Positions 27,016 through 43,132 are shown, counted from the first letter of the stretch. The stretch: 64,000 bases of DNA from Candidatus Binatia bacterium (GCA_035566895.1 DATMQA010000007.1:54395-118394); one strand, 5' to 3'. The notes: generated from the sequence alone by a model not told the origin. Made by a program: numbers and translations.

Positions 27016-27537
27016 TCATGAAATATGCTCCAGGGCGGAAACCACCCTTAACTGAGCGCGTTCTGGCCGGGCCGACAACAGTTTTCTGACCACGCAGTGC
27101 AAGTCATTCACCATGAAGGGTTTGCTCAGGAGCGCGTCCACCGGGTTCTCGGCCTCGCGACATGCCCTCGCCGAGGCAGTGATCATCAGGATTGGCACCG
27201 AGGGCGCCAATTGCTTGATTCCAACCGCAAGCTCGTTGCCTTTCATTACCGGCATCTCGAAGTCCGTAATCACAAGGTCAAACTGACCAATGGTGAAAGA
27301 TGTCAGCGCCTCGGCGCCATCGCTGGCCTCGGTGACCTGATGCCCCTCCATCTCGAGCATCATGCGGAGACACGCGCGGATAGACGCCTCGTCGTCGACG
27401 AGCAGTATTCGCCTGCCGCGAACGTCAGCCGGTTCGGCGCTCAAATCGGGGTCAATCCATGACGCTTCGGCACCTCTGGTTTGGCGCGGTTCGAAGGTGG
27501 TTAAAGCGGAATGTCTATTCTCAATCATTTGTTTCAC
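27016..27537 (-). CDS. single-domain response regulator (CheY-like receiver)
   Basis: RILLVDDE, LVITDFEMP, ILMITA and SKPF conserved receiver residues. Confidence 0.85.
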   Translation of the reverse strand: MKQMIENRHSALTTFEPRQTRGAEASWIDPDLSAEPADVRGRRILLVDDEASIRACLRMMLEMEGHQVTEASDGAEALTSFTIGQFDLVITDFEMPVMKGNELAVGIKQLAPSVPILMITASARACREAENPVDALLSKPFMVNDLHCVVRKLLSARPERAQLRVVSALEHIS

Positions 27538-28162
27538 TTCCTGCTCGTGTTGGAGAGAGCCTGGTTGGCTCCGCGCCGTTCACGGCCTTGTCTTCGGCGA
27601 CCTCCTCGGTCGCCATGGCTGCGGAGATGGTTTGCCGGTGAACTCCGAGCTTCTGCGCAGCCAGCGAAATGTTATTGCCCATAAGCTGAACTACATGCCG
27701 GATGTAGTGGTACTTGACCTCGTCCAGCACCAGGACGTCTTCCTCCCGTTGAGGCAGCAGGACATCGGGAGCGGTTTCCAATCGGCCCATCCAGCGTTTG
27801 ACGCGGTTGGCCAGCATGCCGCCCCCGATGTTCTTTTCCAAAAATTCATCCGCATCGGCCAACAGGGCATCCAGCTTCACGTTGTAGGACTTGCCGCTCA
27901 TGACGATTATCGGCATGTGCGCGGACATCGAGCGTGCGGTTCGCACAACTTCACTGGCAACATGGTCCAGAAACCAGTCCACCAGCAGGATCGAAATCTT
28001 GTTTCGCGCCAGGGCCTCGAGCGCTTCTGAAACCGAACTGGCCGTGATGCAGGAAATGCCTTCCGCTTCGATACAGTCAGTGATGTACCGCCGAGAGTCC
28101 TGGTCAGCGTCAACCACCAGCACGCGCTTTCCACCATCGAGTTTTGGTTTTTTCACATTCAT
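27521..28162 (-). CDS. response regulator with a receiver domain and a Fis-type HTH (RegA/ActR-like architecture)
   Basis: RVLVVDAD...ILLVDWFL..IIVMSG receiver, then C-terminal NISLAAQKLGVHRQTISAAM HTH. It overlaps the downstream response regulator by 17 nt. No histidine kinase is in the window. Confidence 0.8.
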   Translation of the reverse strand: MNVKKPKLDGGKRVLVVDADQDSRRYITDCIEAEGISCITASSVSEALEALARNKISILLVDWFLDHVASEVVRTARSMSAHMPIIVMSGKSYNVKLDALLADADEFLEKNIGGGMLANRVKRWMGRLETAPDVLLPQREEDVLVLDEVKYHYIRHVVQLMGNNISLAAQKLGVHRQTISAAMATEEVAEDKAVNGAEPTRLSPTRAGSETND

Positions 28163-28369
28163 TGATGCCTAATGTCTAAGAAATGACCGCAGGAAGCATA
28201 CCAAAGTCGAATTTTTCACTATCTCTGGGAGATCTTGATGAAAAAACCATCAATCACATCAGCGAGCTGTCCAATTGTTGACCAGCATGTGTCCCGTGCA
28301 TGGACACACTGTATGGACAGTGCGCCAGATAACTCACAGATCCAAAACCTGCTAACCCGCTGCCAGAAC

Positions 28370-28556
28370 ATCCGGCGCTGATGATCCGTCAGGTCGTTAG
28401 GACCTCGGTAAACAGGGGTGATTTTGAGTTTTTGATCCGTCAGGTTATCCGTCATGTTATCCGTCAGCATCCGTCAGGACTCGGTAAACACGAGCGATTG
28501 TAAATCCGCAATCCGTCAGGACCCGGTAAACAGGGCTGTTTTTGATGTCCCAGGCA
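28370..28556 (+). repeat. modular repeat element, copy A (ATCCGTCAGG words plus three CGGTAAACA units, 14-nt terminal motif)
   Basis: ATCCGGCGCTGATG at 28370-28383. Five ATCCGTCAG words plus one ATCCGTCAT variant. Three units of the form word + CGGTAAACA + G-rich + T-run. It aligns with the reverse complement of 42581-42758 at about 75-80 percent identity by hand alignment. Confidence 0.85.
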
Positions 28557-28565
28557 GCTTCCCGG

Positions 28566-29276
28566 CTATTCCCACATCTTCACGCGGTTGGGGAGCCCTT
28601 GAGGCCGCTGGCAGCGCGCCGGTGCAGGGATGGGGCGCTGGCACTGCCAGCGGTTCTCACGCAGCAGCAGGAAGCCGAGCGAAGCCGCCAACAGCAGGCT
28701 CAGCACCGCCGGCTCAGGTACCTGTAGGAGCACCTCGGCGCCGTTACCACCCCCAACGCCACTGTAGAGGTACGAGGTGTCCACCTGGTAACCGGGATAG
28801 ATGGAAGAATTGCCTTCGACTATCGCTGGAGAATCGCTGCTGACAAATCCGAAACTGAGGGATTGGCCAGGATTCAACGGCGCACTGGAGGAGGTGAATT
28901 CAATGGAATAGTCGTAGTAATAATAGTAGTTATAGTAGTAACCGGTGATCACGGAAGCCCCCCATCCTGCCGGCGCTTGAGTGCTGGTCGGGGACGAGGG
29001 CAGGAAATTGTCGCCGTTGGGCAGCCAGGCAAACCAAAAAGTCTCAATCGGACTGGTCGAAGAACCCGAATTGTTCAGCGTAATGGTGTAATCGTAAAGA
29101 CCGCCCCCAGCCGGTTGACTGCTGATCTGAGCGCTGGCGCTAATGCCTTGTGCCGGGAGCATGTCGGCCACGCCAAGAACACACCAAAGCAAACAAGCCG
29201 TTTTGAGCGCAGTTAAAAGCGTCCGGCCCTTGCTGGGCCGGGGGCCAATCGGGGTGTTTTTCGCTGTCTTTTTCAT
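28566..29276 (-). CDS. PEP-CTERM domain protein with a poly-Tyr tract
   Basis: Signal peptide, GYYYNYYYYYDYS tract, and C-terminal VPEPAVLSLLLAASLGFLLLR (PEP motif + TM + Arg). About 30 further residues follow the sorting signal. Confidence 0.75.
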   Translation of the reverse strand: MKKTAKNTPIGPRPSKGRTLLTALKTACLLWCVLGVADMLPAQGISASAQISSQPAGGGLYDYTITLNNSGSSTSPIETFWFAWLPNGDNFLPSSPTSTQAPAGWGASVITGYYYNYYYYYDYSIEFTSSSAPLNPGQSLSFGFVSSDSPAIVEGNSSIYPGYQVDTSYLYSGVGGGNGAEVLLQVPEPAVLSLLLAASLGFLLLRENRWQCQRPIPAPARCQRPQGLPNRVKMWE

Positions 29277-29449
29277 GGTTTCCAGTCTGCTTTGCATCAC
29301 GACAAAGCGGGTACTTCTACGTATGAGGGCCGACGCAGGATATTTGTTCCCCGGACAATTTTAAAACACGCCCCGCCCGCCGTCCCTTGCCAACGCGCCG
29401 TTTCATCTTGTTTGACCCGGTGGCTGCCTCCCCCCACCATCCCCCGCAC

Positions 29450-30382
29450 ATGGCGCCCTCAGTTGTCATCGAAACGCAAGCCTTGACCAAAGTCTTTGGC
29501 CCGCAGCGCGCCCTGGACGCGGTCAACCTCCAGGTGGCGCCCGGGGCGGTCGGGTTGCTGGGGCCCAACGGCGCCGGCAAGAGCACCTTCATGAAATGCC
29601 TCCTCCAGCTCCTGCCGATTACTTCCGGCTCCGCCCGGCTCCTGGGACGCGAGGTCGGCCGCGAAGGCCGCGAGATTCGTAAGCGCGTCGGCTACACGCC
29701 CGAGCAGGACTGCCACATCCCCGGCATGGCCGGTTGCGAGTATGTCACCTACTGCGCCCAGTTATGCGGTCTGCCCTTCCAGGCGGCCCGCCAGCGCGCG
29801 CATGAAATGCTCGATTTCGTCGGCATGGGCCAGGAGCGCTACCGCAAAGCGGATACCTATTCCACTGGCATGAAGCAACGCCTCAAGCTGGCCCAGGCAA
29901 TCGTTCACGACCCCGAAATCGTTTTTCTCGATGAACCGACCAACGGCCTCGACCCCAAAGGCCAGGCGCAAATCCTCGAATTGATTCAAAGCCTCTGGAA
30001 GACCTTTGGCATTACCGTCGTCCTCTCCTCCCACCTGCTCCAGGATGTGGACCGCATCTGCGAACAGATCATTATCATCGCCCGCGGTCGCGTGCTGGTC
30101 CACGATACCCTGGAGAACCTCAAGGCGCGCAAGCGTGGTGCCGCCGAGGTGGTCCTGGCCGTCAGCCCGGCGCCGCTGCAAGCGGCCTGCGCCCGGCGCC
30201 AATGGCCGTGCGAGCTGCTGGTCAACGGCCATGTTCGCGTCGAACACAAAGCCGAATCGCTCAACCCGCTGCTGAGCCTCCTGCATGAATTGAAACTGGC
30301 CCCGCTGGAGCTCATTCCCAGCCCTAACGCGCTCGAAGAAACCTTCGTGCAAGCCCTGGAGATTTCCCATGCCGCTGCATGA
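29450..30382 (+). CDS. ABC transporter ATP-binding protein
   Basis: Walker A GPNGAGKST, signature YSTGMKQRL and Walker B IVFLDEPTNGLD. The start is taken at ATG 29450. Confidence 0.9.
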   Translation: MAPSVVIETQALTKVFGPQRALDAVNLQVAPGAVGLLGPNGAGKSTFMKCLLQLLPITSGSARLLGREVGREGREIRKRVGYTPEQDCHIPGMAGCEYVTYCAQLCGLPFQAARQRAHEMLDFVGMGQERYRKADTYSTGMKQRLKLAQAIVHDPEIVFLDEPTNGLDPKGQAQILELIQSLWKTFGITVVLSSHLLQDVDRICEQIIIIARGRVLVHDTLENLKARKRGAAEVVLAVSPAPLQAACARRQWPCELLVNGHVRVEHKAESLNPLLSLLHELKLAPLELIPSPNALEETFVQALEISHAAA

Positions 30383-31439
30383 TACCAGTTACCAGCACTG
30401 GGAGGGCGTCCACTGCGGCTTATGGCATCGCCGTTGGGTCATCGCCCGAAACGGCGTCGCCACTTGTCTCCAAAACAAGTGGATGCGCCACCTCGTGGTC
30501 TTGTGCTGGGTCGGCGGTTTGGTCATGACGGCCCTGCTGTTCCTGGTCGGCCAGCTCCTGGTCGCCGATAGCATCGTCGTCCTGTGGGTGGGCAACTTGA
30601 ATCCGAACCTTCAGAGCTTCGCCCGCATGCTGACCACCTGGCTCGAGCAGCACCCCGAGGTCTCTGTGCGCACGACTCAGGACGTGCTGTTCTTTTACTT
30701 TGCGACTTTGCTGATGCCCATGAGCATCTTCGCCCTGGGCATGGCCCTCCCGCTGCTCATCACCCGCGACCTGGCCAGCAACGCCATCATCATCTACTCC
30801 TCCAAGGCCGTCAGCCGCGGCGATTACTTGCTCGGCAAATTCGCCACCGCGTTTGGTTTGCTGGCGCTGACCTGGCTGGGGCCGGTCTGCGCGGCGTGGT
30901 TGGTCGGCAATCTTCTGGCGCCCGATTGGCGCTTTTTCTGGCATGCCCGCGTAGCGCTCGGGCACGCCCTGGTTTACGGCCTCACCAGCATGTGCCTTTT
31001 AAGCGTGCTCGCCATGGGTGTTTCCGCCCTCTCCAGTAAGGAAAAAACTACGCCCGCGTTCTGGTTTATGTACGATTTCCGTACCGGCCATAAACCAGTA
31101 ACCTCGATGACTGCGCGTGGCTTTGTACACCTCCCTCGGATGGATGGGTGGGTCCTCGGCGGCATCGTCGCCAACATTGCCGCGCACACTCAGCCGTGGC
31201 TGCGGCACGTGAGCTTCACCTTTAACCTCGACCAGGTCGCCCTGGCGGTCTTTCGCCTCGGCGATGACCTCAAGATCGCCCAGGATAATGTTCCGATCTT
31301 TGGCAACATGCTGCGCAACATCCGGCCCGAAACCATGACCGCGCTCAATTCGCCGGCCCTCACCGGCGCGTTGCTGGGCCTGTTGTGCATGGCCGCCGCG
31401 GCTGCCCTGCTGCTGCGCAACCGCGTCAAACCCGAATGA
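30369..31439 (+). CDS. ABC-2-type transporter permease-like membrane protein
   Basis: Multi-TM ORF that overlaps both flanking ATPase genes (operon). Confidence 0.65.
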   Translation: MPLHDTSYQHWEGVHCGLWHRRWVIARNGVATCLQNKWMRHLVVLCWVGGLVMTALLFLVGQLLVADSIVVLWVGNLNPNLQSFARMLTTWLEQHPEVSVRTTQDVLFFYFATLLMPMSIFALGMALPLLITRDLASNAIIIYSSKAVSRGDYLLGKFATAFGLLALTWLGPVCAAWLVGNLLAPDWRFFWHARVALGHALVYGLTSMCLLSVLAMGVSALSSKEKTTPAFWFMYDFRTGHKPVTSMTARGFVHLPRMDGWVLGGIVANIAAHTQPWLRHVSFTFNLDQVALAVFRLGDDLKIAQDNVPIFGNMLRNIRPETMTALNSPALTGALLGLLCMAAAAALLLRNRVKPE

Positions 31440-32362
31440 CCCCCGTCGTCCAGGCCGAGGAATTAAGCCGCTGGTATGGCATTGTCATGGGACTCAACAA
31501 TGTCAGCTTCACCATCGCGCCCGGACTGACCGGCCTGGTCGGGCCCAACGGCGCGGGCAAAAGCACGCTCATCCAGATTATCACCGGCCAGCTCCAGCCC
31601 AGCTCAGGCACCTTGACCGTTTTAGGCCAAGTGCCCTGGAACAACCCACGGCTCATTCAGAGCATCGGCTATTGTCCCGAGCGCGAGGCGGTGCCCAAAG
31701 ACCTGCGCCCGTTGGAATGGCTGGGCGGCCTGGCCTTGCTCTCGGGATTGAGCGGCGCCGCCGCGGCCGGCCGTTGCGAAACCGTCCTGGACAAGGTCGG
31801 CCTCCCGCGCGAGCACTGGTCCAAATCCATGGGCCAGTATTCCAAAGGCATGAAACAGCGCGTCAAACTGGCCCAGGGCCTCTTGCACGGACCCGACCTG
31901 CTCGTGCTCGACGAACCCATGAACGGGTTGGACCCGATGGGCCGCCAGGAAATCGCCAACATTTTGAAAAACCTCGCCGCCGGCGGCGTGAGCATCCTCA
32001 TCTCCAGCCACATCCTTGCCGAGCTCGAATCGCTTTGCCAGGACATCCTCATCCTCAACTGGGGCCGCATCCTGGCCTCGGGCTCGCAGCGGGAAATCCG
32101 CACCGACCTCAAGAATTGGTCGGAGGAATTGTCCATCCAATGCGACGCCCCGGAAAAACTCGCCCGCTGCCTCTTTGACGCCGGCGTCTTGCTCGGGTTC
32201 GACGTCGGCCCCGAGGAAGACTCGCTCCACATCCGGGTCAAGGACGCCACTGCCTTTTACGCGCGCTGGACCGGTTTGCTGCTCGAAAGCGGCGTGACCG
32301 TGCAGGCGATCCGCAGCCAGAGCCGCTCGTTAAAAAACATTTTCGACAAGGTCACCTCATGA
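31436..32362 (+). CDS. ABC transporter ATP-binding protein (second)
   Basis: GPNGAGKST, YSKGMKQRVKLAQ and LLVLDEPMNGLD. ATGA overlap with the upstream gene. Confidence 0.9.
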   Translation: MTPVVQAEELSRWYGIVMGLNNVSFTIAPGLTGLVGPNGAGKSTLIQIITGQLQPSSGTLTVLGQVPWNNPRLIQSIGYCPEREAVPKDLRPLEWLGGLALLSGLSGAAAAGRCETVLDKVGLPREHWSKSMGQYSKGMKQRVKLAQGLLHGPDLLVLDEPMNGLDPMGRQEIANILKNLAAGGVSILISSHILAELESLCQDILILNWGRILASGSQREIRTDLKNWSEELSIQCDAPEKLARCLFDAGVLLGFDVGPEEDSLHIRVKDATAFYARWTGLLLESGVTVQAIRSQSRSLKNIFDKVTS

Positions 32363-33531
32363 CCGTTTCGCCGAACAGCCTCCAGATGCCGCCACCGCTG
32401 CCGGTCGCGCTCGGCAAGCCCCCCGAAGCGCAACCCACGTTCCAGGGCGCGTTGCGCGGCATTTGGCTCTTTACCTGGCGGCCGCAATTGGCCTGGCGGC
32501 GCCTGCCCATCCATTTGCTCGGATTGCTGGTTCTGCCGGCCCTGGTTTATCTCACCGTGCCTTCGGCCGCGCGCTGGTCCGCGCGCCGGGAACCGCTCAT
32601 TGCGCCCCGCGCCCAGGTCAACGAGTTCAGCCGCCGCGCGGCCCGCGCCGGCCATGAGCTCACGTCCGAACAACGCGGCGACCTGCTGCAGATTTTCAGC
32701 GAAGAAACCGCGCGCCTGGACACGCCTTCGAGCGATACGCTTTCCGGCGAAGCCGCCGCCGCGCGCCGGCGCCAGGAAATCAAAGCCGCTTATGACCGCA
32801 TCCAGCACCGCGCCCAGGACGGCCTGGATGACGCCCAATTCGCGCAATTCAAGACCTTTGCCGGCCACGCCAGTTTGTTGGCCCAGCAAAAAGTCAGGCC
32901 CACCTGGGGGCGCACCGAGCCTTTTTACCATTGGCTGGTGGACCTCTACTTTTTCGTGACCCTGCCGCTCCAATGCGTGCGCGCTTGCGGCGGCCTCATC
33001 CGCGATGAATTGCAGGCCGACACGCTGGGCTTCCTCCTCACGCGCCCCCTGAGCCGCGCGCGCTTGCTGGTCCTGAAATACATCGCGCAAACCACGTGGC
33101 TCCAGGCCACGCTGCTGCTCGAAACCCTGCTGCTGTTCGCCGTCGCCGGTTTCCGCCAGCTCCCCGGTGTCGCCAGCCTGCTGCCGCTCTTCCTCGGCGC
33201 CCAACTCCTGGCGGTGCCGGCCTGGAGCGCCCTCGGCGTCTTCCTGGGCCAGCTTACCAAACGCTACATGCCCCTGGCCCTGATTTATGGGCTCATCGTC
33301 GAAATGGGCATCGGCCGCATCCCCACGAATATCAATACCCTCTCCTTGATGCGCCATCTCAAGACCCTGCTGGCCCACGATTCCGGCCTGCAGAGCATCT
33401 ACGAATGGCCGGCTCAAGGCGTGCCGCTGGCAATCGGCTCGCTCCTGTTTGCCGCCGCCCTGTTCCTCACCGTCGCCGCCCTCCTGTTCACCTTCAAAGA
33501 ATACCACCACACCGCCGAGATGCAGAAGTGA
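32359..33531 (+). CDS. membrane protein, putative second permease of the ABC system
   Basis: ATGA overlap with the ATPase. It has an N-terminal TM, a large soluble loop and then about five TM helices. Confidence 0.6.
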   Translation: MTVSPNSLQMPPPLPVALGKPPEAQPTFQGALRGIWLFTWRPQLAWRRLPIHLLGLLVLPALVYLTVPSAARWSARREPLIAPRAQVNEFSRRAARAGHELTSEQRGDLLQIFSEETARLDTPSSDTLSGEAAAARRRQEIKAAYDRIQHRAQDGLDDAQFAQFKTFAGHASLLAQQKVRPTWGRTEPFYHWLVDLYFFVTLPLQCVRACGGLIRDELQADTLGFLLTRPLSRARLLVLKYIAQTTWLQATLLLETLLLFAVAGFRQLPGVASLLPLFLGAQLLAVPAWSALGVFLGQLTKRYMPLALIYGLIVEMGIGRIPTNINTLSLMRHLKTLLAHDSGLQSIYEWPAQGVPLAIGSLLFAAALFLTVAALLFTFKEYHHTAEMQK

Positions 33532-33558
33532 GGGGTGGGTTAAAAAGCCCAACTCCTG

Positions 33559-34155
33559 TCAGGTCATATACGGGGCTCGCATGGCGCGGGAGCGCATGCG
33601 GTTGGCTTCGGGATCACCGGGAAACTCGGCCTTGCTTAGATCGAACTTGAGGTTTCGCTTTAGCTGCTCGCAGATGTCGGCAGCCAGGCAGATGTTCATG
33701 GCGCGACGCATGACTTCAGGATTCGCCACCGTGAGCCGGCGCGACCGGATCGAGTCGAGGAAATCCCGCACGTGGTTCAGCGGGCGTTGTGTCCGGGCGG
33801 TGTAGTCGGCCAGCACTTTTTTGTATTCCTGCAACAGCGCCGGCGATGAGACATCTGGCCCTGAATAGCCGTCGGCGGCGGCGACCCATCCTTCCGGACC
33901 GTCGAATCGCTCACCACAAGCGCCATGCCAGAACTTGCACGGTTCCCAAACCGAGCCGGGAGAGCGGAACAGAACCAGGTTTACGCCGTTGGACAACCGC
34001 GTCACCATCGACGCGTCCGGTCCCTCATACTCGAACTGGATAAAGGACACATTCGTCATATCGAGTCCGGCAAGGGCTTGGGTAACTGAGTGCGCGCCCC
34101 ACATCGCGACGTCGGTAGCGAAATCATAATAGTGATACCACCCTGCTCCGTTCAA
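33559..34155 (-). pseudogene. C-terminal half of a Gfo/Idh/MocA oxidoreductase, lacking the Rossmann domain
   Basis: YHYYDFATDVAMWGAHSV...NHVRDFLDSIRSRR...NICLAADICEQLKRNLKFDLSKAEFPGDPEANRM parallels the C-terminal half of the intact paralog at 14819..16144. The frame opens directly at the stop codon of the LRR gene (34156-34158). Confidence 0.6.
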
Positions 34156-37023
34156 TCAAGGAACCGCTTTCAGCCGGTAAAAGGTCTGCGCCGAACCCGC
34201 GGCCGTCCCGTCGGTCCAGTCTGTGACCCCCGTTGTATTCGCAACCTGGCCAAGAGAACTCCATTCGCCGAGAACGGTCGAGGCTTGCACTTCCAGGCGC
34301 AACCCAGGCGGGCCATGCAGCCGAAGGCGCGGCGCGCCATTCATCGGCGAGACGGGCGGCTCGATCCAAACGGAAGAAAGCGGGACTTCGCGCAGCCTGT
34401 AGAAACGAGCGCCGGAAGAGGCTCCCGCATCTACAAACGTCCGCAATACCGTCGGGTTCGCTATCACCGCCAGCGTGGACCACTCCCCCAGGTTCGTCGA
34501 AACCATCACCGCAAAGAGCCGGCCCGGCATCCCGTGGAGAATCAGCCCGCACTGCCCGTTCCCCGGCCGCCCATCCAACTCCAGCCAGCTTTGGACCGGC
34601 AGCGGCTGTTGCGACTCGGCATAGACGTAAACCCCGCGGTTGGTCAGCGCCTGGAGCAGGCTGAGGTTCGGCGACCCGAGGTTCAAACTCAAATAATTCC
34701 CATTGAGGTTCACGTACGAATTCGATACAACCGCCGGCAGGGTCGCAAGATCGGTAAGCAGATTCCCGCTCACATCGAGGACTTGGATATTTGTCAGGTT
34801 CGCTAGCGCAGAAAGGTTGCTCAGCCAATCGCTTGCCAGGCCAACGGATGAGAGCCGTTGAAGTCCAGCCAGCCCAGCCAGGCTCGAGAGCCGGCAACCA
34901 TTCATGGTCAGGGAGGTCAGATTGGTCAGGCCGGCCAGTCCGTCGCAGTTCGTTACCGGGTTGTCGGACACGTCCAGAGTGTAGAGTGACCACAACCCAC
35001 CCAGTGGACTCAAATCAGAGATGTGGTTTTGACTAAGATGCAGGTAATAGAGTTGGTGCAGTCCGGACAGGCAATCGGCGTTCGTCAGCGACGCCCCCTC
35101 CAGCATCAGCTCTGTCAGATTGGTAAGCTCGCTTAAGGGCGCACAGTTGCCGATGGGCACGAGAGTGAGGTTCAGGTAAGACAAGCTGGTCAAACCCGCT
35201 AGCGGCGAAATATCTCTCAAGGGAGTGCCGGTCAGGTTCAAGTTCTGGAGGCGAGTGAGGTTGCTCAATGCCGCTATATTCGTCACGGCCGTGTAATCGA
35301 GATCGAGCGAGAACAGATTGGTCATCGACGACAACCCCGCGCAATTGAAGATCGGATTCTGGGACAGGGTCAAGTAGTTCAGGTTCGTCAAACCGGATAA
35401 GGGCGTTAGGTCGCTGAGTTGGTCCCCGTACAGGCGCGCATAGTTCAACCGGCTCATTCCGGCGAGGCACGCCGCGTCCATGGTGCCGGCATTGTCCGCG
35501 ATCAGAGTCTGGAGATTCGTCAGGCCGCCCAGGCCGGAGCAGTTGGTGATGGTGTTTTGGCTTACCGTCAGAGAAGTCAGGCCGCCCAAACCGGCCAGTG
35601 GCCCGAGATCCCCGATGCGGTTTCCGTAAAGGTTAAGGCTGCTCAGTTGGGTTAACCCTGCGAGCCCAACGATGTTCGAGAGCAAGGTTGAATTAAGGCT
35701 CAGGTTCACCAGGTTCGTCAGCCCAGCCAGCGCCGCGCAAGTGCCAACGGGATTATCGTCGGCCATCAGCGTTTGCAGCAGCGTTGCTCCCGCCAGCGGA
35801 CCAAAGTCGCCTATGTTTTGACCCGATAAGCTCAAAGCCGTGAGTTGGCTCATGCCCGCCAGGCAGTCGATATTGGTAAGCGCCGGCACAGGCGGAGGTC
35901 CTCCTGGCCGAATGATGGTGGGAAAGGCGTAGGCGTGGGTCAGATCCAGGTTTGTCAGCCCGGTCATCCCAGCAAGCGCCGAACAATCTTGCAGGAGGTT
36001 CCCATTGAGGATGAGGTTCTGTAAATTCGTCATTCCCGCCAGGGGTGACACATCCCAGACTGCCCTCCCGGTCAGGTTCAGGGAAATGAGCCTGGTCAGC
36101 CCGGAAAGGCTCCCCAGCGCGAAAGCCTTCGAGGGGTCGGCTGATTGCGGGCCCAGCAGCACGGGGGCTCTGCCATACGCGTTCAAATTGAGGTCGCTCA
36201 GGTTGGTCAACCCCGCCAGGGGCGCGCAATTTGTAATCGCGCTCCCGGCCAGATTGAGCATTTCCAGGCGGAACAGCCCCGCCAGCGGGAAGAAGTTGGT
36301 TATTCCATTGTATCGCAGGTCTAGCCACCGCAGTTCGCCCAACGCGGCAATCCAATCGAGGTTCGTTATCTGACACCCACCGAGGCCGAGATTCGTCAGG
36401 TTGACCAGGTTGGCCAGGGCGGTGCCGGTTGTAATCGGATTGCCGCTAAGGTCCAGGGATTGCAAACGGCTCAACTGCTGGAGCGGAGCGACGTTGGTCA
36501 CCTCCGTGCCCGCGAGACCCAGGCGGACCAGCGCTTGCAGGTTTGACAGGCAACTCGGATCCTCCAAAGGGGCCGCACGACCGAAGCGGGGCAAAATCGG
36601 CAGGATCGGGTATCCTAAAAGCTGAGCACCATACGGGTCCTTCAGGTCCAAACTTGTCAGGTTTGTCAATCCCGACAACGGAGTGTAGTTCGTTGTCGCA
36701 TTTCCGCTGAGGTTCAGGTTCGTCAGCCCTGTCAGTCCCGTTAGTGGCGCAAGGTCCCCCGCCGAATCGTTGCTTAAGCTCAGGCTTCCCAGATTTCTTG
36801 CCCACTCCAAGCCGGACAAACTCCTGATCCCGAGATTCGAACCGTCCAGACCGGTCAATAGGTTCAGGTCATTCGTGGTGAGGACCCCGGTCGGCTTGTT
36901 CAGCGCCGCCCGGACCGCCGATTCAAGCCTCCCATCCGCAAACTGCACCTGCGCCTGCCCCAAAGCCGTGCCGGCCATCCCGGCCAGAAAAGACAAAACC
37001 AACACGCGGCTCAAAGTTTTCAT
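34156..37023 (-). CDS. secreted leucine-rich-repeat protein with two tandem C-terminal FYR-P modules
   Basis: Signal peptide, then about 30 LRR units (L.GLTNLT.L.L..N.I.D..PLAGL), then ...ARFYRLREVP and ...QTFYRLKAVP-stop. Confidence 0.85.
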   Translation of the reverse strand: MKTLSRVLVLSFLAGMAGTALGQAQVQFADGRLESAVRAALNKPTGVLTTNDLNLLTGLDGSNLGIRSLSGLEWARNLGSLSLSNDSAGDLAPLTGLTGLTNLNLSGNATTNYTPLSGLTNLTSLDLKDPYGAQLLGYPILPILPRFGRAAPLEDPSCLSNLQALVRLGLAGTEVTNVAPLQQLSRLQSLDLSGNPITTGTALANLVNLTNLGLGGCQITNLDWIAALGELRWLDLRYNGITNFFPLAGLFRLEMLNLAGSAITNCAPLAGLTNLSDLNLNAYGRAPVLLGPQSADPSKAFALGSLSGLTRLISLNLTGRAVWDVSPLAGMTNLQNLILNGNLLQDCSALAGMTGLTNLDLTHAYAFPTIIRPGGPPPVPALTNIDCLAGMSQLTALSLSGQNIGDFGPLAGATLLQTLMADDNPVGTCAALAGLTNLVNLSLNSTLLSNIVGLAGLTQLSSLNLYGNRIGDLGPLAGLGGLTSLTVSQNTITNCSGLGGLTNLQTLIADNAGTMDAACLAGMSRLNYARLYGDQLSDLTPLSGLTNLNYLTLSQNPIFNCAGLSSMTNLFSLDLDYTAVTNIAALSNLTRLQNLNLTGTPLRDISPLAGLTSLSYLNLTLVPIGNCAPLSELTNLTELMLEGASLTNADCLSGLHQLYYLHLSQNHISDLSPLGGLWSLYTLDVSDNPVTNCDGLAGLTNLTSLTMNGCRLSSLAGLAGLQRLSSVGLASDWLSNLSALANLTNIQVLDVSGNLLTDLATLPAVVSNSYVNLNGNYLSLNLGSPNLSLLQALTNRGVYVYAESQQPLPVQSWLELDGRPGNGQCGLILHGMPGRLFAVMVSTNLGEWSTLAVIANPTVLRTFVDAGASSGARFYRLREVPLSSVWIEPPVSPMNGAPRLRLHGPPGLRLEVQASTVLGEWSSLGQVANTTGVTDWTDGTAAGSAQTFYRLKAVP

Positions 37024-37353
37024 CCCAGATTAATCCTTCGTCATTGGCAGGCCGACATTATCAGCCTCACGAATTCAGTCAAGCAAGAACAACCAAACTC
37101 TGGACCCCTTCGTCCGGGAGCCGCAAAGTCCCGCCAGGGACGCTCGACCATAGCCCACCCGTTTTCAACGGTGGGTACCCATGCGCCCGAGGACCAAGTC
37201 CCTTCAGGGACGGCAGAGCGCCGAGAGATTGATGAGCGCCCCTTGAACGGAGCGAGCGAAAGCTTTCCTCGGCAGAATGCGGCGTTCAATTGGCGGAAGT
37301 TGACAACGGATGCTCTGGCCTTATTCGGCATGGGGGAGCGCGGGGTGCCGCTG

Positions 37354-37651
37354 AAAAAAAATTTAGGGTTAAAAAACGTTAAAAACCGCTAAAAAAGGTT
37401 AAAACCGCGATCGCGGCCATAATTTGGATAGGGCGGCGGCGAGGAGCAGGAAAGGTGACACGGGGGGCTGGGCTTTCATGTTTGCTTTGTACGGTTTTCT
37501 GTTATCCGGACCGGCCGCGGTTGGCGACACTGCCCTCTACTATGTATGGCGCGACAAAGGTTGTCTGACGGCGGACAAGGCGCTGGGCCGGGTCTTCCTT
37601 GAGGGGATGAGCGGTCCGGCGGCGTCTCGTGCTCGGAGTGAAATCGGCGCG
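37354..37651 (+). repeat. 297-bp tandem non-coding unit, copy 1
   Basis: A-run + ATTTAG + four GTTAAAA-type words, then a conserved core (GCGATCGCGGCCATAATTTGGAT...GGTGACACGGGGGGCTGGGCTTTCATGTTTGCTT...CCCTCTACTATGTATGG...GGACAAGGCGCT...GGTCCGGCGGCG). Confidence 0.85.
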
Positions 37652-37922
37652 AAAAAAATTTAGTGTTAAGAAGTGTTAAGGAGTGTTAAGAAATGTTAAG
37701 GCTGCGATCGCGGCCATAATTTGGATGGAGGCGGCGGCGAGGGGCAGGGAAGGTGACACGGGGGGCTGGGCTTTCATGTTTGCTTGTAAGGTTTTCTGTT
37801 ATCCGGGCCAGCCGCAGTTGGCGACACTGCCCTCTACTATGTATTGTGCGACGAAATGTGTCTGACGGCGGACAAGGCGCTGGTCCGGGTCTTCCTTGAG
37901 GACACTCAGCGGTCCGGCGGCG
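37652..37922 (+). repeat. 297-bp tandem non-coding unit, copy 2
   Basis: Same organisation with different words (four GTGTTAAG-type words). The core is highly similar to copy 1 but carries a 1-bp indel, so no reading frame is conserved. Confidence 0.85.
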
Positions 37923-38050
37923 CAAATGAGCCGTGTTGGGACAAGGTTCGGCGGCAGCACGCGACTGAGAAGGCTGCGGTCTCGGGAGATGAGATGCCCA
38001 AAATCTGGAGAGTGGGGGGTACGCGATGGTGCGGAGCACCTTCATTTGAA

Positions 38051-38100
38051 CTCGGATTTAGTCCGATTTAGTCCGATTTAGTCCGATTTACTCGGAATAG
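38051..38100 (+). repeat. decamer tandem array (GTCCGATTTA x3 perfect, plus two degenerate flanking units)
   Basis: CTCGGATTTA GTCCGATTTA GTCCGATTTA GTCCGATTTA CTCGGAATAG. It is followed by a GGGGTGACGGCCCGGGAGGGGG segment resembling the GGTGACACGGGGGGCTGGG core of the two upstream units. Confidence 0.85.
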
Positions 38101-38601
38101 GTCAGAGCGCGGGGAAAAGGGGTGACGGCCCGGGAGGGGGTGGGGGTGGGAGTACCCTCGTGGAGCCGGCACAGCGGCACAACCTGCATTTTACCGAGAG
38201 ATTTTTGAAGGCCGAGCCGGCACAAATGGCGGCACAACCCGTCACAACCCGGCACATTCTGGTCTCAAGCGGAAACAGGGGAACAGGCCGCAAAGGGGTA
38301 CCTGGAGGAGGATTTCCTGGACACGTTCCGGCGATATATTCCGAGGTCGGAAGTGGAGGCGCTAGAGGCGGACCTGGCGGAACGGACGTGATCCCCAAGC
38401 AGGAACATTATCTCAACCGAATGGCGCGTTCAGGATACTGCTCTACGTCACGCGTTGAGCAGTTGGCTGCTTAACTTCCGCCATACGCTCTGCGAAGGAG
38501 GATGGTAAATGGCACCTGGATATTCGACTCACTATTGATGTGGCGAGTCGCAGATCCAGGCCGGCTGCCGAATCAAGTCAGGATAAAAACTGAACGGCCT
38601 T

Positions 38602-39180
38602 ATGGGTGACCTCCTTTCTCCGTCAACCTTCAAACCTTCGGAAAGCTTGCCTACTTCAGAGTCCAGCCTTATTCTGGCTACTGTGCACGCAAAAGATCCG
38701 ACACAGGCCGAGTTCCGGAAAGCGGTCGCGCGGTTCGGGAACCCTTACAGGTTCGTTGAGCTCGATGAAGACGGTTTCAACCCTCAACCGCCGACGTTGG
38801 AACAACAACGTGCCTACCTTCGAAAACTTGAAGACCCATACGCCTTCCACGGCATCTTCGACTTCGAAGACGGACAAGCTCAGCCGACTTGTGCTCAATC
38901 CACTCCCGCTGATAAGACAGTCCCCACAACCAGGCTGCGAGCCTCCCTCGATGAAGTTCTGAACGCCTACAAGCCCTACATTGCTCGCTCAGAATGGAAA
39001 AAAGTTACTGACTACAGACCCGAGTTTCTCTTTGAAGCCCAGCGCGACCCTGCTCGCGCGGCACTGATCCTGCATAAGCTTGAGCAACTCAAATTCAGCC
39101 TGATGCCGGGTGAAAAGGTGGAGTTTAATCGTGCTCCTGCGGAGCGAATCGTTAGCCAGCTTAAGAAACTTCTCCGCTGA
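38602..39180 (+). CDS. hypothetical protein (no recognisable domain), upstream partner of the ImmA/IrrE protease
   Basis: 192-aa ORF located 5 nt upstream of the next gene. No HTH is evident. Confidence 0.55.
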   Translation: MGDLLSPSTFKPSESLPTSESSLILATVHAKDPTQAEFRKAVARFGNPYRFVELDEDGFNPQPPTLEQQRAYLRKLEDPYAFHGIFDFEDGQAQPTCAQSTPADKTVPTTRLRASLDEVLNAYKPYIARSEWKKVTDYRPEFLFEAQRDPARAALILHKLEQLKFSLMPGEKVEFNRAPAERIVSQLKKLLR

Positions 39181-39185
39181 GGCCC

Positions 39186-40073
39186 ATGGCACGTGTTGCA
39201 AACGCCGCTCTTTTCCGGGCGCTCTCAAGACAGGCGGAAGAGCTCGGCCGCAGAGCGGGCGGGAACCAGCTACCTGTCCGCTTGCGTCCTTTGGCAGAAA
39301 AGCGCCGAATCACATCCGTCGAGTTCCAGCCCCTCTTGGTTGATGCAATGCTCACGACCCATCCAGGTGGGTTCCGGGTTTTCTTCAGCTCCGATGGCCG
39401 CGATCCGGAGGAACTTAAGCGGAAATACCACTCTGAGGAGAGCAACGGCCTTTTGCCTACCAGGCTGCGGTTTTCGTTCGCTCACGAGCTTGCGCACACC
39501 CTGTTTTACGATCTGGCACAACCAACACCCGAACTCGCCAAACGGTTCAGAGCTGGAGGGGGGAAGAACGAGCTCGAAAACCTCGAGACAAGTTGCAACC
39601 GACTCGCCGCCAAGCTGCTCCTGCCCGCCGCCCTCGTCCGAAATGAGTTAGGAAAGGCCAAGGTCCTCACCGCGGAATTCCTAACTGCGCTCGCCCAAAA
39701 GGCTGGTGTCTCCATTGAAGCCCTCATCAGGAGGCTCAACGAGCAGGACCAGCTTCTGGTCGCCCCATTTTTCCCTATCTGCATTCTCCTGCTCGATGGA
39801 GAGGATGGATGTTTCCGTGTCAAAGCACTGGCTACATGTCCAGGCTTCCGTCTCGCCGAGCGCCTTCTTAAAATTAAGCAAGGACAGGCATGGGAGCTGA
39901 ATGATGCCGACGGGCACTCGATTGAAGCTGGTTGCATTACATCTCGAGAAGTGGCCTTTCCAGCCGACTCATCACGCCGCAGCAAGCGTTTGCGTTACCG
40001 GTATACCCAAGCACCAACCGGGCGGGGAGCACGGTCGTTTATAATGACCTTCGAAGAAATCTTGCCGACCTAG
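39186..40073 (+). CDS. ImmA/IrrE family (COG2856) zinc metallopeptidase
   Basis: FAHELAHTLFYD (HEXXH) followed by E.SCNRLAAKLLLPAALV, the typical ImmA second motif. It has an additional C-terminal domain of about 130 aa. Confidence 0.75.
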   Translation: MARVANAALFRALSRQAEELGRRAGGNQLPVRLRPLAEKRRITSVEFQPLLVDAMLTTHPGGFRVFFSSDGRDPEELKRKYHSEESNGLLPTRLRFSFAHELAHTLFYDLAQPTPELAKRFRAGGGKNELENLETSCNRLAAKLLLPAALVRNELGKAKVLTAEFLTALAQKAGVSIEALIRRLNEQDQLLVAPFFPICILLLDGEDGCFRVKALATCPGFRLAERLLKIKQGQAWELNDADGHSIEAGCITSREVAFPADSSRRSKRLRYRYTQAPTGRGARSFIMTFEEILPT

Positions 40074-40213
40074 CTGCCACAGCTCACCCGGCGTTCGGCA
40101 GAGAACTTTGGCTGGGTCGCATTTGCGCCGTGTTGCCAAATCGGATTCGCTCCCGGTGGTCAGTAATCCGTGTTCAGTATTCGGGCGGCGCGCTTGGGCC
40201 GTTTCGAAACGCA

Positions 40214-40243
40214 ACCGCTAATCGACGCTAATGGACGCTAACC
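40214..40243 (+). repeat. decamer array (CCGCTAATCG ACGCTAATGG ACGCTAACCA)
   Basis: Three consecutive 10-bp units sharing CGCTAA. Confidence 0.7.
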
Positions 40244-40430
40244 AAGTGAATTCTCGCCAGGGTGATTGCGGCCCAGCTTGCCTGGCAGGGCTCAGCCAGG
40301 AAAGAAGATTGCCGTGCAGACGCGTCCCGCATGAGGCGGAACGTGATCAGTTGCACAGATTCCCAAATCTGCGGGAGTGCCTCGATGACCCCTTGACCGA
40401 ACGATGGGTGACTCCTTCTCCTTTGTGACG

Positions 40431-40486
40431 GGGTCAGTGGCGCAGATTTGCGTATCGTTATGCGAGTCTGCGCCACTGACCCTTTT
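40431..40486 (+). terminator. 16-bp perfect inverted repeat hairpin followed by TTTT
   Basis: GGGTCAGTGGCGCAGA (40431-40446) pairs with TCTGCGCCACTGACCC (40467-40482), then TTTTCC. The U-run is only present when read on the plus strand. Confidence 0.6.
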
Positions 40487-40594
40487 CCGGTTCTTCAAAA
40501 TCATCGAGGAAACGCCCGTTCTTAATTTTTCAACTCGGCATTATCTAGGCATTATCATGACGACTCGTGGTTGATCCTGTCAAAACCCGCGGAG

Positions 40595-41593
40595 TTACGG
40601 TGACAAATCCCAAATCCGGATTGTTGTATCGCTGCTCCCGCTCACCAAATGCCTGCTATCCGGTGAAAAGGCCAGCGAAAGGACCCAATTGGTGTGGCCG
40701 CTGAGCGTCCTCACGAGCCTGCCGGTTGCCAAAGCCCACACCTTGATGGCCTTGCGCGCCGTTGCGGCCAGAAGCCTTCCGTTCGGAGAAATCGCCAACC
40801 CACGGCAGTTGTCGCCGGTGTCGAACTCGCGCAGCGGCCGCCCCGTGCCCGCCTCAAGCAAAGCAACCTTTTGTTGGGTAGTTTGGTAAGCCACCGCCGA
40901 GCCGTCCGGCGTTACGGCCACGCTCCAAACCTGTTCGTCCGAACGCATCCACCGCTTGAGGCCGGTCGGCAGATCCCAGAGCGTGACATCACCCGCGGAC
41001 GCGAACCCATTCCCGGCCCCACTCACCAATCTCTTGCCATCCGGCAAAAACGCTACGCTCAACACCAGTTGGTTGGTGCTGCCAACCAGAGTATGCACCA
41101 GGGCACCGGTAGCCACGTCCCACACCCGCACGGTCCGTTTTGAATCGCCCGAGGCCACCTGCCTCCCGTCGGGCGAAAAGACGGCTCGGGGGATGGCTTC
41201 CGTCTTGCCTTCCAGCAGCCGGACCACCTCGCCGGAGTCAGGTCGCACGAGTTTCACCCCGCTGTCCGTGCGCAAGGCCAGCAATTTGCCATCCGGCGAA
41301 AAGGCCGCCGAGGTGTCCCATTCGTTGGTTTCAAGCACGCGGATGGTCCGTCCGGTTGCCGCGTCCCATAACCTCGCCGTTCGATCATCGCTGGCACTGA
41401 CCACTATCCGCCCATCGGGCGAGTAGTCGGCGAAAGTGCTTCCCGTGTGCCCCCGGAGAATGAGTGAATTCGTAATGGTTACCTCGGCCGCAGCGGTACC
41501 GCTTAAGCCACATGCCAGGGAGCTCGCGACCAGCAGAAAGCTCGGAAAGCATTTCATAAGTAACATCATCCAAGCCGCAGTTGAAGTTGTCAA
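40595..41593 (-). CDS. secreted WD40-repeat beta-propeller protein
   Basis: Signal peptide and about seven WD40-like blades (GHTGS...SPDGR..VSAS.D.TARLWD). Confidence 0.85.
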   Translation of the reverse strand: MTTSTAAWMMLLMKCFPSFLLVASSLACGLSGTAAAEVTITNSLILRGHTGSTFADYSPDGRIVVSASDDRTARLWDAATGRTIRVLETNEWDTSAAFSPDGKLLALRTDSGVKLVRPDSGEVVRLLEGKTEAIPRAVFSPDGRQVASGDSKRTVRVWDVATGALVHTLVGSTNQLVLSVAFLPDGKRLVSGAGNGFASAGDVTLWDLPTGLKRWMRSDEQVWSVAVTPDGSAVAYQTTQQKVALLEAGTGRPLREFDTGDNCRGLAISPNGRLLAATARKAIKVWALATGRLVRTLSGHTNWVLSLAFSPDSRHLVSGSSDTTIRIWDLSP

Positions 41594-41695
41594 AGAGGAG
41601 CGCGCGTGAATTTATATACAAATTCTCCGGGGGGCAGTCTCGCACACCCGGGCATTGGCGTTGACGGAATTGAGCGACGAAGAGAAACCCAGCCC

Positions 41696-42316
41696 CTAAG
41701 GCACCACCAAAACAATGTAAAACCTCATCGCGCCCGAACGCGTCGAGTCGAACGCCGATACGTTTGTTCCCGTGCCGGTTAACGGAGCGCCCAGCGGCTG
41801 CCAGTTCGTTCCCGCCAGGTTCGTCGACCATTCCACTTGGTACCTAGTGTTCGTCACGGTCGGAAACGAAATCTCGACTGCCGGGAATATGCTCGGCGTC
41901 GGCCCGGTAGCGGTAACCACGTCCAACTTCCCGGACCATTCGGAAAGCGAACCCGTATTGCACCCGCCGATAAAACCCTCGGCTTGGAGCTGGAGCAGAT
42001 GTGAACCGTGCGCGACCGGCCCGAGATTAAACCAGCTCGACGCAGCCCCGGGCACCAGGATTTCCGTCTCCGCCCGCTCCTGTCCATCCACAAGGAAATG
42101 GATGCGAATGTACGAACAGTCCGCCGCTGGCGCTGTATATCGCGCGGTCAGAACCCCTGAGGTCCGCACCGGCTGGTTGAACGTGTTGCTGCAGATCTCA
42201 CCGTAACCCGAACACGATATCGCCGGAAGGGCGTAGGTGTTGGTCGTCGTCTGGGCCGACGCGGCAGCAGCGCAAAAAAATGCGGCCAGGGCAAGGCTCA
42301 ATGAGTTGGTTTTCAT
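41696..42316 (-). CDS. small secreted protein with a C-terminal FYR-P module
   Basis: Signal peptide MKTNSLSLALAAFFCAAAASAQ. The tail is YQVEWSTNLAGTNWQPL...GAMRFYIVLVVP-stop. Confidence 0.7.
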   Translation of the reverse strand: MKTNSLSLALAAFFCAAAASAQTTTNTYALPAISCSGYGEICSNTFNQPVRTSGVLTARYTAPAADCSYIRIHFLVDGQERAETEILVPGAASSWFNLGPVAHGSHLLQLQAEGFIGGCNTGSLSEWSGKLDVVTATGPTPSIFPAVEISFPTVTNTRYQVEWSTNLAGTNWQPLGAPLTGTGTNVSAFDSTRSGAMRFYIVLVVP

Positions 42317-42568
42317 GGCGGGTATCAGTGTCAGTGCGCTGCAATTTCGCGGCGGTCAGGATTTCGTGGCAGGAAATATTCCCGTCAGATCCTGATTCAT
42401 TTCAACATTTTCGTGCGAAGGAAACTTTCCCTCAAGGGCAAAATAGGTGGGCCAACTGATTCGCGTTCAATAAGTACCCGTGGCTGGCGCGCGGAGCCAC
42501 GGCTGGCAAATTATCAGGGGGAAAAACCTGCCCGCTGGTTCCCACCACCTCGATCACCGTCTCTGTTT

Positions 42569-42758
42569 ATCCGGCGCTGATGCCTCGGACATCAAAAACA
42601 GCCCGTGTTTACCGAGCTTGTAACGACCTGCACATTCAAGATCCCTCGTGTTTACCGAGCTTGTAACGACTGTAACGGATCGTTACGGATAGTGTAACGG
42701 ATAAAAAGCGCAAAAATCGCCCGTGTTTACCGATGTTGTAACGACGTAACGGATCAAA
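42569..42758 (-). repeat. modular repeat element, copy B (ATCCGTTAC / GTCGTTACAA words plus three CGGTAAACA units)
   Basis: The reverse complement aligns with copy A over about 180 bp. The same 14-mer ATCCGGCGCTGATG is at 42569-42582. Confidence 0.85.
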
Positions 42759-43008
42759 GGGGGGGTGCTATATACATATATACCTATACCCCTCACGTCA
42801 CCTTGGCTGGCTTTGTCCATCTATCCCAAACTGTAACTAACTGCGACCAACTTCGACCAGGTCCCGGTAGCCGCTCGGTAGGTCCTGGAAGCCCCTGGTA
42901 ACCCCTGGTAGGTACCTAAAGCCTTCCCCTCATCCGTCGCCCCCCCAAGCATTCCTCAGTAATCCCGACCAGTCCCGACTAATCCTGGGTTTCGAAATAT
43001 TTTTTTCA

Positions 43009-43057
43009 GACTGTGGACTGTGGACTGTGGACTGTGGACTGTGGACTTTGGACTGTG
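43009..43057 (+). repeat. heptanucleotide tandem repeat (GACTGTG)x7, with the sixth unit GACTTTG
   Basis: Read directly from the sequence. It ends 75 nt upstream of ATG 43133. Confidence 0.95.
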
Positions 43058-43132
43058 GCCGGCCCCCAGGCTTGCGCTTTCCTAGCCCCTGGTTCAAAGT
43101 CAATTTCCATTGTTGAAAGGGTGTGCCTGAAT

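Follow-up and report, generated by a model that had tools for sequence, protein, structure and literature searches.

Interspersed mosaic repeats of a bacterial genome carry subfamily-specific word sets on a conserved scaffold

RESULTS AND DISCUSSION

Two inverted copies of one element in the window

The window analysed in this study is the whole 64,000-nt stretch C7:54395-118394, which belongs to contig C7 of a 6.5-Mb assembly (227 contigs, 59% G+C). It contains two copies of a modular non-coding element, copy A at 28370-28556 on the + strand and copy B at 42569-42758 on the - strand, and both sequences were confirmed at these coordinates. Copy A is next to a response regulator gene (REC plus Fis-type HTH, 27521-28162) on the minus strand that is divergent from A, as the preliminary description of this DNA had proposed. 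Copy B was correctly placed upstream of the gene at 41696-42316, but the gap measures 253 bp and not about 270 bp. The two copies are mutually inverted with their heads outward, and between them are two ABC-transporter sets, genes for an LRR protein, an M78 peptidase and a WD40 protein, and genes of unknown function.

An alignment of about 180 bp at 75-80% identity had been proposed between A and the reverse complement of B, and the computed alignment agrees, with 76% identity over 179 bp (E 1.2e-24; MAFFT, BLASTN). The similarity runs through the words, the CGGTAAACA motifs and the spacers and so extends beyond CGGTAAACA alone. Each copy has three units made of words, the CGGTAAACA motif and a T-rich stretch, and the earlier word counts were reproduced as well: A has five copies of ATCCGTCAG and one of ATCCGTCAT, and the reverse complement of B has seven words of the ATCCGTTAC / GTCGTTACA type (CGTTACA type).

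In copy A, unit 1 (28384-28434, + strand) consists of the words ATCCGTCAGG and TCGTTAGGAC, the motif CTCGGTAAACAGGGG and a T-rich spacer. Unit 2 (28435-28510, + strand) has four phased words with spacings of 12, 12 and 10, arranged as ATCCGTCAGG tt ATCCGTCATG tt ATCCGTCAGC ATCCGTCAGG, followed by the motif CTCGGTAAACACGAG and a spacer. Unit 3 (28511-28556, + strand) has a single word followed by the motif CCGGTAAACAGGG and a T-run, after which a decayed unit 4 begins. The sequence that ends A had been taken for a degenerate version of a terminal repeat, but it is A's own decayed fourth unit. Copy A covers positions 37-212 only of the family model and is therefore 5'-truncated, and its scaffold is the most diverged in the family (75-81% identity to other A-type copies). 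We regard copy A as an old, 5'-truncated family member.

Copy B is a complete member. Read along the minus strand, it begins with a G-rich upstream part (42795-42920) in which a conserved GGGATAGATGGACA...GTGACGT block is accompanied by variable phased word arrays of the GGTCGCAGTTA and TACCAGGGG types, and these arrays show mosaic sharing with other copies. The head follows at 42759-42794 (GAGGGG, the TATAGGTATATATGTATATAG palindrome and CACCCCCCC; minus strand), and its G-run/C-run stem shows up in the fold. Units 1-3 (42583-42758, minus strand) hold the seven CGTTACA-type words and three CGGTAAACACG motifs, and a degenerate unit 4 (GCATCAGCGCCGGATAAACAGAGACGGTGATCG) lies at 42540-42582 on the same strand.

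The 14-mer ATCCGGCGCTGATG occurs exactly at 28370-28383 (+ strand), where it forms the left junction of A in place of the head of other copies, and at 42569-42582, within the degenerate unit 4 of B. No third site was found in the 6.5-Mb genome. The two exact matches had been reported before as an inverted pair. Both are on the + strand, however, so they form a direct repeat and not an inverted one. To the left of copy A, family homology amounts to the 14-mer alone, and nothing further was matched. In B, the degenerate unit 4 (GCATCAGCGCCGGATAAACAG) is homologous to the GCATCAGGGCCCGGTAAATACGG unit of other copies and family homology continues past the 14-mer, which argues for a rearrangement joint specific to A and not for a family terminus. 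The 14-mer may be a rearrangement or template-switch joint.

This direct repeat bounds a 14.2-kb segment (28370-42582). A 48-codon ORF at 28235-28381 (MMKKPSITSASCPIVDQHVSRAWTHCMDSAPDNSQIQNLLTRCQNIRR) has its stop codon inside the first 14-mer and GGGAG before an internal ATG at 28238. A + strand ORF at 42413-42580 ends at the other 14-mer, also in IRR, and is otherwise unrelated to the ORF at 28235-28381.

Anatomy and genomic setting of the family

Searches with BLASTN and an nhmmer profile found 17 copies in the genome, so that the element is multi-copy as had been suspected. All 17 are outside long open frames, and coding is ruled out because the indels among family copies are not multiples of three. 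The 17 copies are 210-500 bp long, and alignment with their flanks gives a directional element of about 350-510 bp. A complete copy starts with variable G-rich arrays of phased short words and a conserved GGGATAGATGGACA...GTGAGGGG block. This is followed by the head, which consists of a G-run, a TATA-rich palindrome and C7 (TATAGGCATATATGTATATAGTA, then C7 and TTTG), and then by three to six units, each of which has 1-4 words, YCGGTAAACACGRG and a T-rich spacer. The words read YCGT plus 4 nt and are phased at 10-12 bp, and the CGGTAAACACG motif is invariant. The units are co-oriented and in tandem. There are three of them in B- and C-type copies and up to six in A-type copies, in which the distal ones are decaying. 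The number of words in unit 2 varies (five in the copy on contig C205, for example), and the upstream modules are shuffled among subfamilies. The head is present in 16 of the 17 copies, copy A being the sole copy that lacks it. At four loci there are two co-oriented tandem copies of differing subfamilies.

The copies have no neighbour protein in common at E<=1e-10 in an all-against-all BLASTP comparison of the flanking ORFs. The neighbours are diverse and include glycosidase-like secreted proteins, a restriction enzyme, response regulators and a MarR-like protein. The orientation of the elements relative to flanking genes is not fixed and can be convergent, divergent or tandem. Element orientation also shows no trend with replication polarity, as it matched the local GC skew in 8/17 copies. 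One tandem pair, of an A-type and a C-type copy (C7:45034-45575), adjoins a gene at C7:44000-44820 that codes for a BsuBI/PstI-type restriction endonuclease HTH-domain protein. The gene lies about 9.5 kb ahead of the window.

Word types are inherited with the scaffold

Three word types were found among the 17 copies: CGTCAGG (n=8), CGTTACA (n=7) and CGTCACA (n=2), here called A, B and C type. When a tree is computed from the scaffold columns alone, the B-type and C-type copies each form a supported clade and the A-type copies make up the rest. As the word type follows the scaffold tree, the word is a subfamily character that was inherited by descent. Slot-specific variants were inherited too, such as CCGTAACG at slot 4 of B copies. 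The preliminary description held that the word had been homogenised separately in each copy. A conserved scaffold with a differing word was indeed found, but separate homogenisation was not, as the word is inherited by subfamily.

Words rank among the best-conserved segments within a subfamily. Word identity is 0.92-0.96 within the A type and 0.85-0.93 within the B type but only 0.41-0.68 between A and B, whereas the head, motif and spacers hold 0.78-0.92 identity between types, and the head and motif alone 80-92%. Words that are kept within a type and diverged between types make the pattern expected of specificity determinants. Additionally, the scaffolds of orthologous units (u1-u1, u2-u2, u3-u3) are more alike than those of paralogous units, so that the words at about seven separate slots were switched jointly while the units themselves were not homogenised. 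Seven slots are very unlikely to have acquired the same substitutions independently, and the joint switch is taken as evidence that the words of each element answer to one trans-acting specificity. The words recur at about one helical turn, with a spacing of 10-12 bp in A and B and of 8-14 bp (mode 10-11) across all CGT-word arrays of the genome.

Sister families and related elements in other genera

There are 82 motif units in the genome that have CGT-words nearby. A sister element of the CGTCCC type is 124 bp long and is present in 13 copies with only scattered differences (C10:3972; C69:379 and 74176; C85:32684 and 20776; C96:37639; C110:15047; C118:1122 and 2640; C142:17305; C174:5366; C221:77020; C224:3679). 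It is built of GGGGGGATAGGGGGTACCTTGGGGGTGTACAG, two copies of CCGTCCCA, CCGGTAAACACGGGC, a spacer and four more copies of CCGTCCCA. Two smaller sister families in the genome carry their words in the opposite orientation, so that the complementary word is on the motif strand (TTGGGACGG vs CCGTCCCAA).

The best protein relatives are Pedosphaera, Limisphaerales and Verrucomicrobia MAGs at 60-70% identity. Related elements were also picked up by BLAST in other genera of the family, at least six in number. The element-positive relatives were G001, G008, G009, G018, G021 and G022, and the other 34 relatives compared were negative. The words seen in other genera include CGTAACA, CGTCCC, GTGTCCC, GTCACCG, CGTCCA and CGTTAAC, and G001 has one three-unit CGTCAGG element. 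Close versions of the CGTCCC type occur in G001, G009 and G021, and its core hardly changes among genera that share only about 60-70% protein identity. In the relatives the same words are found direct and inverted (CGTCCCGCGGGACG, CCGTCCAGTGGACGG), as expected of half-sites on duplex DNA.

The exact head-plus-unit pattern was absent from 185,579 species genomes, and the exact two-unit pattern was present in the element's own genome only, among 251 genomes searched across the order. A search for empty sites covered 169 verrucomicrobial loci (0.8 Mb) of a flanking gene, whose nearest relatives have at most 70% protein identity, and no element was seen in any of them. The sole identical contig, from a Logan assembly, breaks inside B. 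The same strain is present in SRR7101595 and in JGI 3300050821. Plasmids and phages gave no match to the elements, and a single viral match was rejected as a chance match within coding sequence. No description of these elements was found in the literature.

Docking platforms as the favoured reading

The data presented here lead us to favour a reading in which the elements are amplified platforms of candidate recognition sites for type-specific binding factors, probably acting on duplex DNA, and we put the chances of this reading at about even. It is the best fit to the type-specific words, the invariant motif, the spacing of about a helical turn, the direct and inverted use of words, the T-tracts and the avoidance of structure. 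Each element would be a multivalent docking platform of a single specificity. One factor common to all types would recognise the invariant CGGTAAACACG motif, and each word type would have factors of its own (for CGTCAGG, CGTTACA and CGTCACA in this family, and for CGTCCC and others in the sister families). The readers would be sequence-specific nucleic-acid-binding factors, most probably proteins on double-stranded DNA. We infer that the words are binding sites and that the substrate is DNA rather than RNA. The words GTTACA, GTCACA and GTAACA resemble what we take to be the half-sites of OmpR-type regulators. Arrays of protein-binding sites had been mentioned in the preliminary description as an alternative to a mobile element. 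That alternative is now the preferred one and is plausible, and the phased word spacing fits it. What was called a coordinated word swap would be a specificity switch in the founder of each subfamily, followed by amplification, and the copies possibly spread via recombination into repeat-rich intergenic islands. A search for a cognate binding protein gave no candidate, and no convincing operator-like word pairs were found outside the elements near candidate regulator genes.

A wider version of this reading, which we consider distinctly unlikely, is that the elements make up a two-tier cis code in a soil Verrucomicrobia family (Pedosphaera/Limisphaerales-like). A scaffold (head plus CGGTAAACACG motif) and interchangeable 7-8-nt words (YCGT+4) would be read by paralogous, specificity-switched factors, dozens of elements would serve as addressable chromosomal docking platforms, and the founders of new subfamilies would have arisen by concerted rewriting of all word slots. 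If this were true, the platforms could serve in nucleoid organisation, insulation or regulator titration, for example.

Repeat DNA without a host function as a rival reading

One rival to docking platforms holds that the elements do nothing for the host and are selfish or neutral repeats, a BIME/BOX-like mosaic in repeat-rich intergenic islands. On this account, which we judge to be improbable, the copies would have been spread by recombination or by a trans-acting enzyme, and the uniformity of the words would be due to concerted evolution in a founder copy. The setting agrees with it, as there are 1,801 short tandem arrays in 993 islands genome-wide, the studied elements sit within array-rich islands, and their flanks are mosaics of short arrays common to several subfamilies. 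The tandem arrangement of differing subfamilies at four loci and the decaying fragment that is copy A point the same way. The high copy number and the patchy distribution among genera, with widely different copy numbers, likewise fit a selfish element without host function. However, words that are best conserved within a subfamily and slot variants that are inherited give no sign of ongoing homogenisation, and the scaffold units were not homogenised when the word changed. The near-identity of the CGTCCC-type core across genera with about 60-70% protein identity also counts against this rival. Word uniformity could in principle have come about via an unknown conversion process instead of selection, but a selfish or neutral mosaic accounts less well for the pattern of word conservation than binding platforms do.

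A possible function at the RNA level

The elements might instead be non-coding RNA genes or RNA-level cis elements, and we see this as an unlikely explanation too. Transcripts would begin close to the head, where TATAGT precedes the C-run, the small hairpins with U-runs would be leaky terminators, and the C-rich word arrays would bind an RNA-binding protein, load Rho or act as repeated seeds. A TATAGT/TATATA hexamer does lie 7-10 nt before the C-run in the element's own genome and in G022, G008 and G009. However, no sigma-70-type promoter was found by a scan, and there is no obvious -35 element. The units all carry, in one orientation, a hairpin and then a T-rich stretch, and one B unit passes a terminator scan. 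Stems of 3-5 bp (most of them 3-4 bp) are probably too weak to terminate transcription, and the CGTCCC family has no T-run. The 7-nt loop of this hairpin, GTAAACA, is invariant in all 82 units, and a short stem with an invariant loop suggests sequence recognition rather than structure.

Some features of the stems speak for RNA. At one stem pair there is a compensatory exchange between U-A and C-G (8 vs 6), and T-G pairs outnumber C-A pairs in the stem (21 vs 5), which mildly favours RNA on the top strand. However, RNAalifold predicts a consensus fold of very low stability (-11 kcal/mol for 220 columns). All four representatives are less stably folded than their shuffled versions (z +0.5 to +2.0), and the top strand is C-rich and unstructured, with weak hairpin and T-run modules. 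Having less structure than shuffles is what would be expected of a single-stranded binding platform, and the complementary word on the motif strand in the sister families is a further point for RNA. The inverted, palindromic word pairs in relatives suit duplex DNA better. A search of 12 loci against Rfam 15 gave no relevant match at E<=1 (one chance miRNA match had an E of 0.48), and in the window nothing reached the gathering score. Given this null result, the weak RNAalifold fold and the folding worse than shuffles, a structured RNA was rejected.

Mobile-element readings

It is very improbable that A and B delimit a single 14.4-kb mobile element as its inverted ends, of the Tn7/Mu type with multiple transposase sites, or that they are attL/attR-type arms, with arm-type integrase sites, of an integrated island. 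The outward heads of the inverted copies, the ImmA/M78-type gene inside and the 14-bp direct repeat that bounds 28370-42582 would agree with such a structure, and arrays of 10-bp direct repeats by bendable AT/T-tracts and a palindromic core presumably resemble attP arms and multi-site transposon ends. However, the genes between A and B include no transposase or integrase, and a composite transposon or island was rejected for lack of recombinase genes inside. The remaining 15 copies are on other contigs or unpaired and have unrelated neighbours, and the tail of B passes through the 14-mer into family-homologous sequence, which leaves no junction at that place.

A MITE-like non-autonomous transposon with ancestral terminal inverted repeats of about 14 bp (ATCCGGCGCTGATG ... 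CATCAGCGCCGGAT), as first proposed, is the least probable of these readings, since, although the elements are small, non-coding and multi-copy and the 14-mer is exact, confined to the A and B sites and loosely matched in complement by the right end of A, the two 14-mers are direct on the + strand, the 14-mer is missing from the head end of all 16 other copies (B carries it within unit 4), the element is directional, shared terminal inverted repeats and inverted flanking arms are lacking and the elements are not dyads, no target-site duplications are visible in flank alignments, where the boundaries are mosaic and not sharp, and no related autonomous element with matching ends was found, the one RAYT-like Y1 transposase locus inspected having different flanking repeats.

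Comparison with known repeats and site arrays

The preliminary description called the element MITE/BOX-like. The comparison with BOX holds for a modular, non-coding, multi-copy element, and the comparison with MITEs does not. Like BOX of Streptococcus pneumoniae and the BIMEs of enterobacteria, the elements are multi-copy, intergenic and non-coding, are built of few module types in variable number and lie in either orientation. The modular build with variable internal modules is therefore shared, but there is no sequence relation, and the stable stem-loops that define BOX and BIME modules are lacking here, where folding is worse than in shuffled sequence. What sets this family apart is a subfamily-specific 7-8-nt word at about seven slots on a conserved scaffold, and we know of no counterpart of such a word set in BOX or BIME. 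The subfamily-specific word set is the unusual and testable feature of this bacterial interspersed mosaic repeat.

CGTC-tagged REPs are palindromes of 20-40 bp with an 8-9-bp stem, a 4-5-nt loop and a CGTC tag, and form head-to-head dimers (PMC3733652). The elements are like them in being short and intergenic, in that many of their words have CGTC by a small palindrome and in having no dedicated transposase (PMC3733652, Di Nocera et al. 2013). However, unlike CGTC REPs and REPINs, the elements have stems of 3-5 bp, an invariant 7-nt loop and tandem units without dimers, and they do not qualify as CGTC-tagged REPs. A RAYT/REP link was also rejected, as Y1 transposases were present in all 15 relatives checked, with or without elements. 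The RAYT-like Y1 transposase gene at C198:1600-2260 of this genome has its own inverted repeats (CACCCCGCTTCAGCGGGGTG... / GAAACCGTTGAAACGGTT...) and is a separate REPtron-like unit that is unrelated to the elements.

The element flanks and the 1,801 tandem arrays resemble the STRR or heptamer repeats of cyanobacteria, Xanthomonas and Beggiatoaceae in being intergenic with a period of 7-12 (PMC4692102, PMC4679880). The elements themselves differ from these repeats in that their words alternate with a conserved non-repetitive scaffold and the unit has been dispersed as a whole, over its full 210-500 bp. Iterons, the parC/parS-type centromeres of RHH proteins and tor/pho boxes (OmpR/PhoB-type) likewise have a 7-8-bp core that is directly repeated 3-4 times every 10-12 bp, sometimes inverted and by T-tracts. 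However, each of those arrays is confined to a single promoter, origin or centromere and lies close to its cognate gene, whereas here there are dozens of dispersed arrays with no linked gene and several specificities on one scaffold.

Dispersed intergenic repeats are common in bacteria and few of their readers are known, and in this family the informative part has been narrowed to a 7-8-nt word. Arrays of the A, B, C and CGTCCC types that differ only in the word are ready baits for the binding factors of an uncultured, repeat-rich lineage. The same approach may give a clue to the abundant short word arrays of Verrucomicrobia and perhaps to the STRR repeats of cyanobacteria. If there is no reader, the family would still be a clean case of concerted evolution in a new kind of mosaic repeat.

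Other repeats of the genome

The genome as a whole (G000) is rich in short tandem arrays. The periods of the 1,801 arrays found by TRF peak at 7 (443 arrays) and 10 (253), and their words are many, among them AAACGTG, AAAGTCC, AAACACC and ATCATCC. This array load seems unusually high for a bacterial genome. One such array, of the heptamer GTCCACA, lies at about 43000-43130 in the window, and the ORF at 43013-44275 (D-serine dehydratase-like, Ala_racemase_N) begins within it (translated DCGLWTVDCGLWTV). Homologues of this ORF align only from residue ~40, so the start codon is probably further downstream and the array non-coding.

The window also contains tandem 297-bp non-coding units at 37354-37922. 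They belong to a dispersed family with matches on about 15 other contigs and gave no Rfam match. Their design is the same as that of the elements, with A8TTTAG, four unit-specific words (GTTAAAA vs GTGTTAAG) and a conserved core of about 230 nt.

Small genes of the PF05635 type (S23p / four-helix-bundle) were found at eight loci over the cut-off, and seven of these were inspected (G000 C131:70165-70479, C16:10732-11043, C179:3617-3934, C107:8859-9170, C117:37261-37989, C10:58497-58778 and C69:163025-163255). In most of these seven cases one heptamer array stands on both sides of the gene, the two sides being inverted relative to each other, as in GTCCACA...TGTGGAC or TTTTTGA...TCAAAAA.
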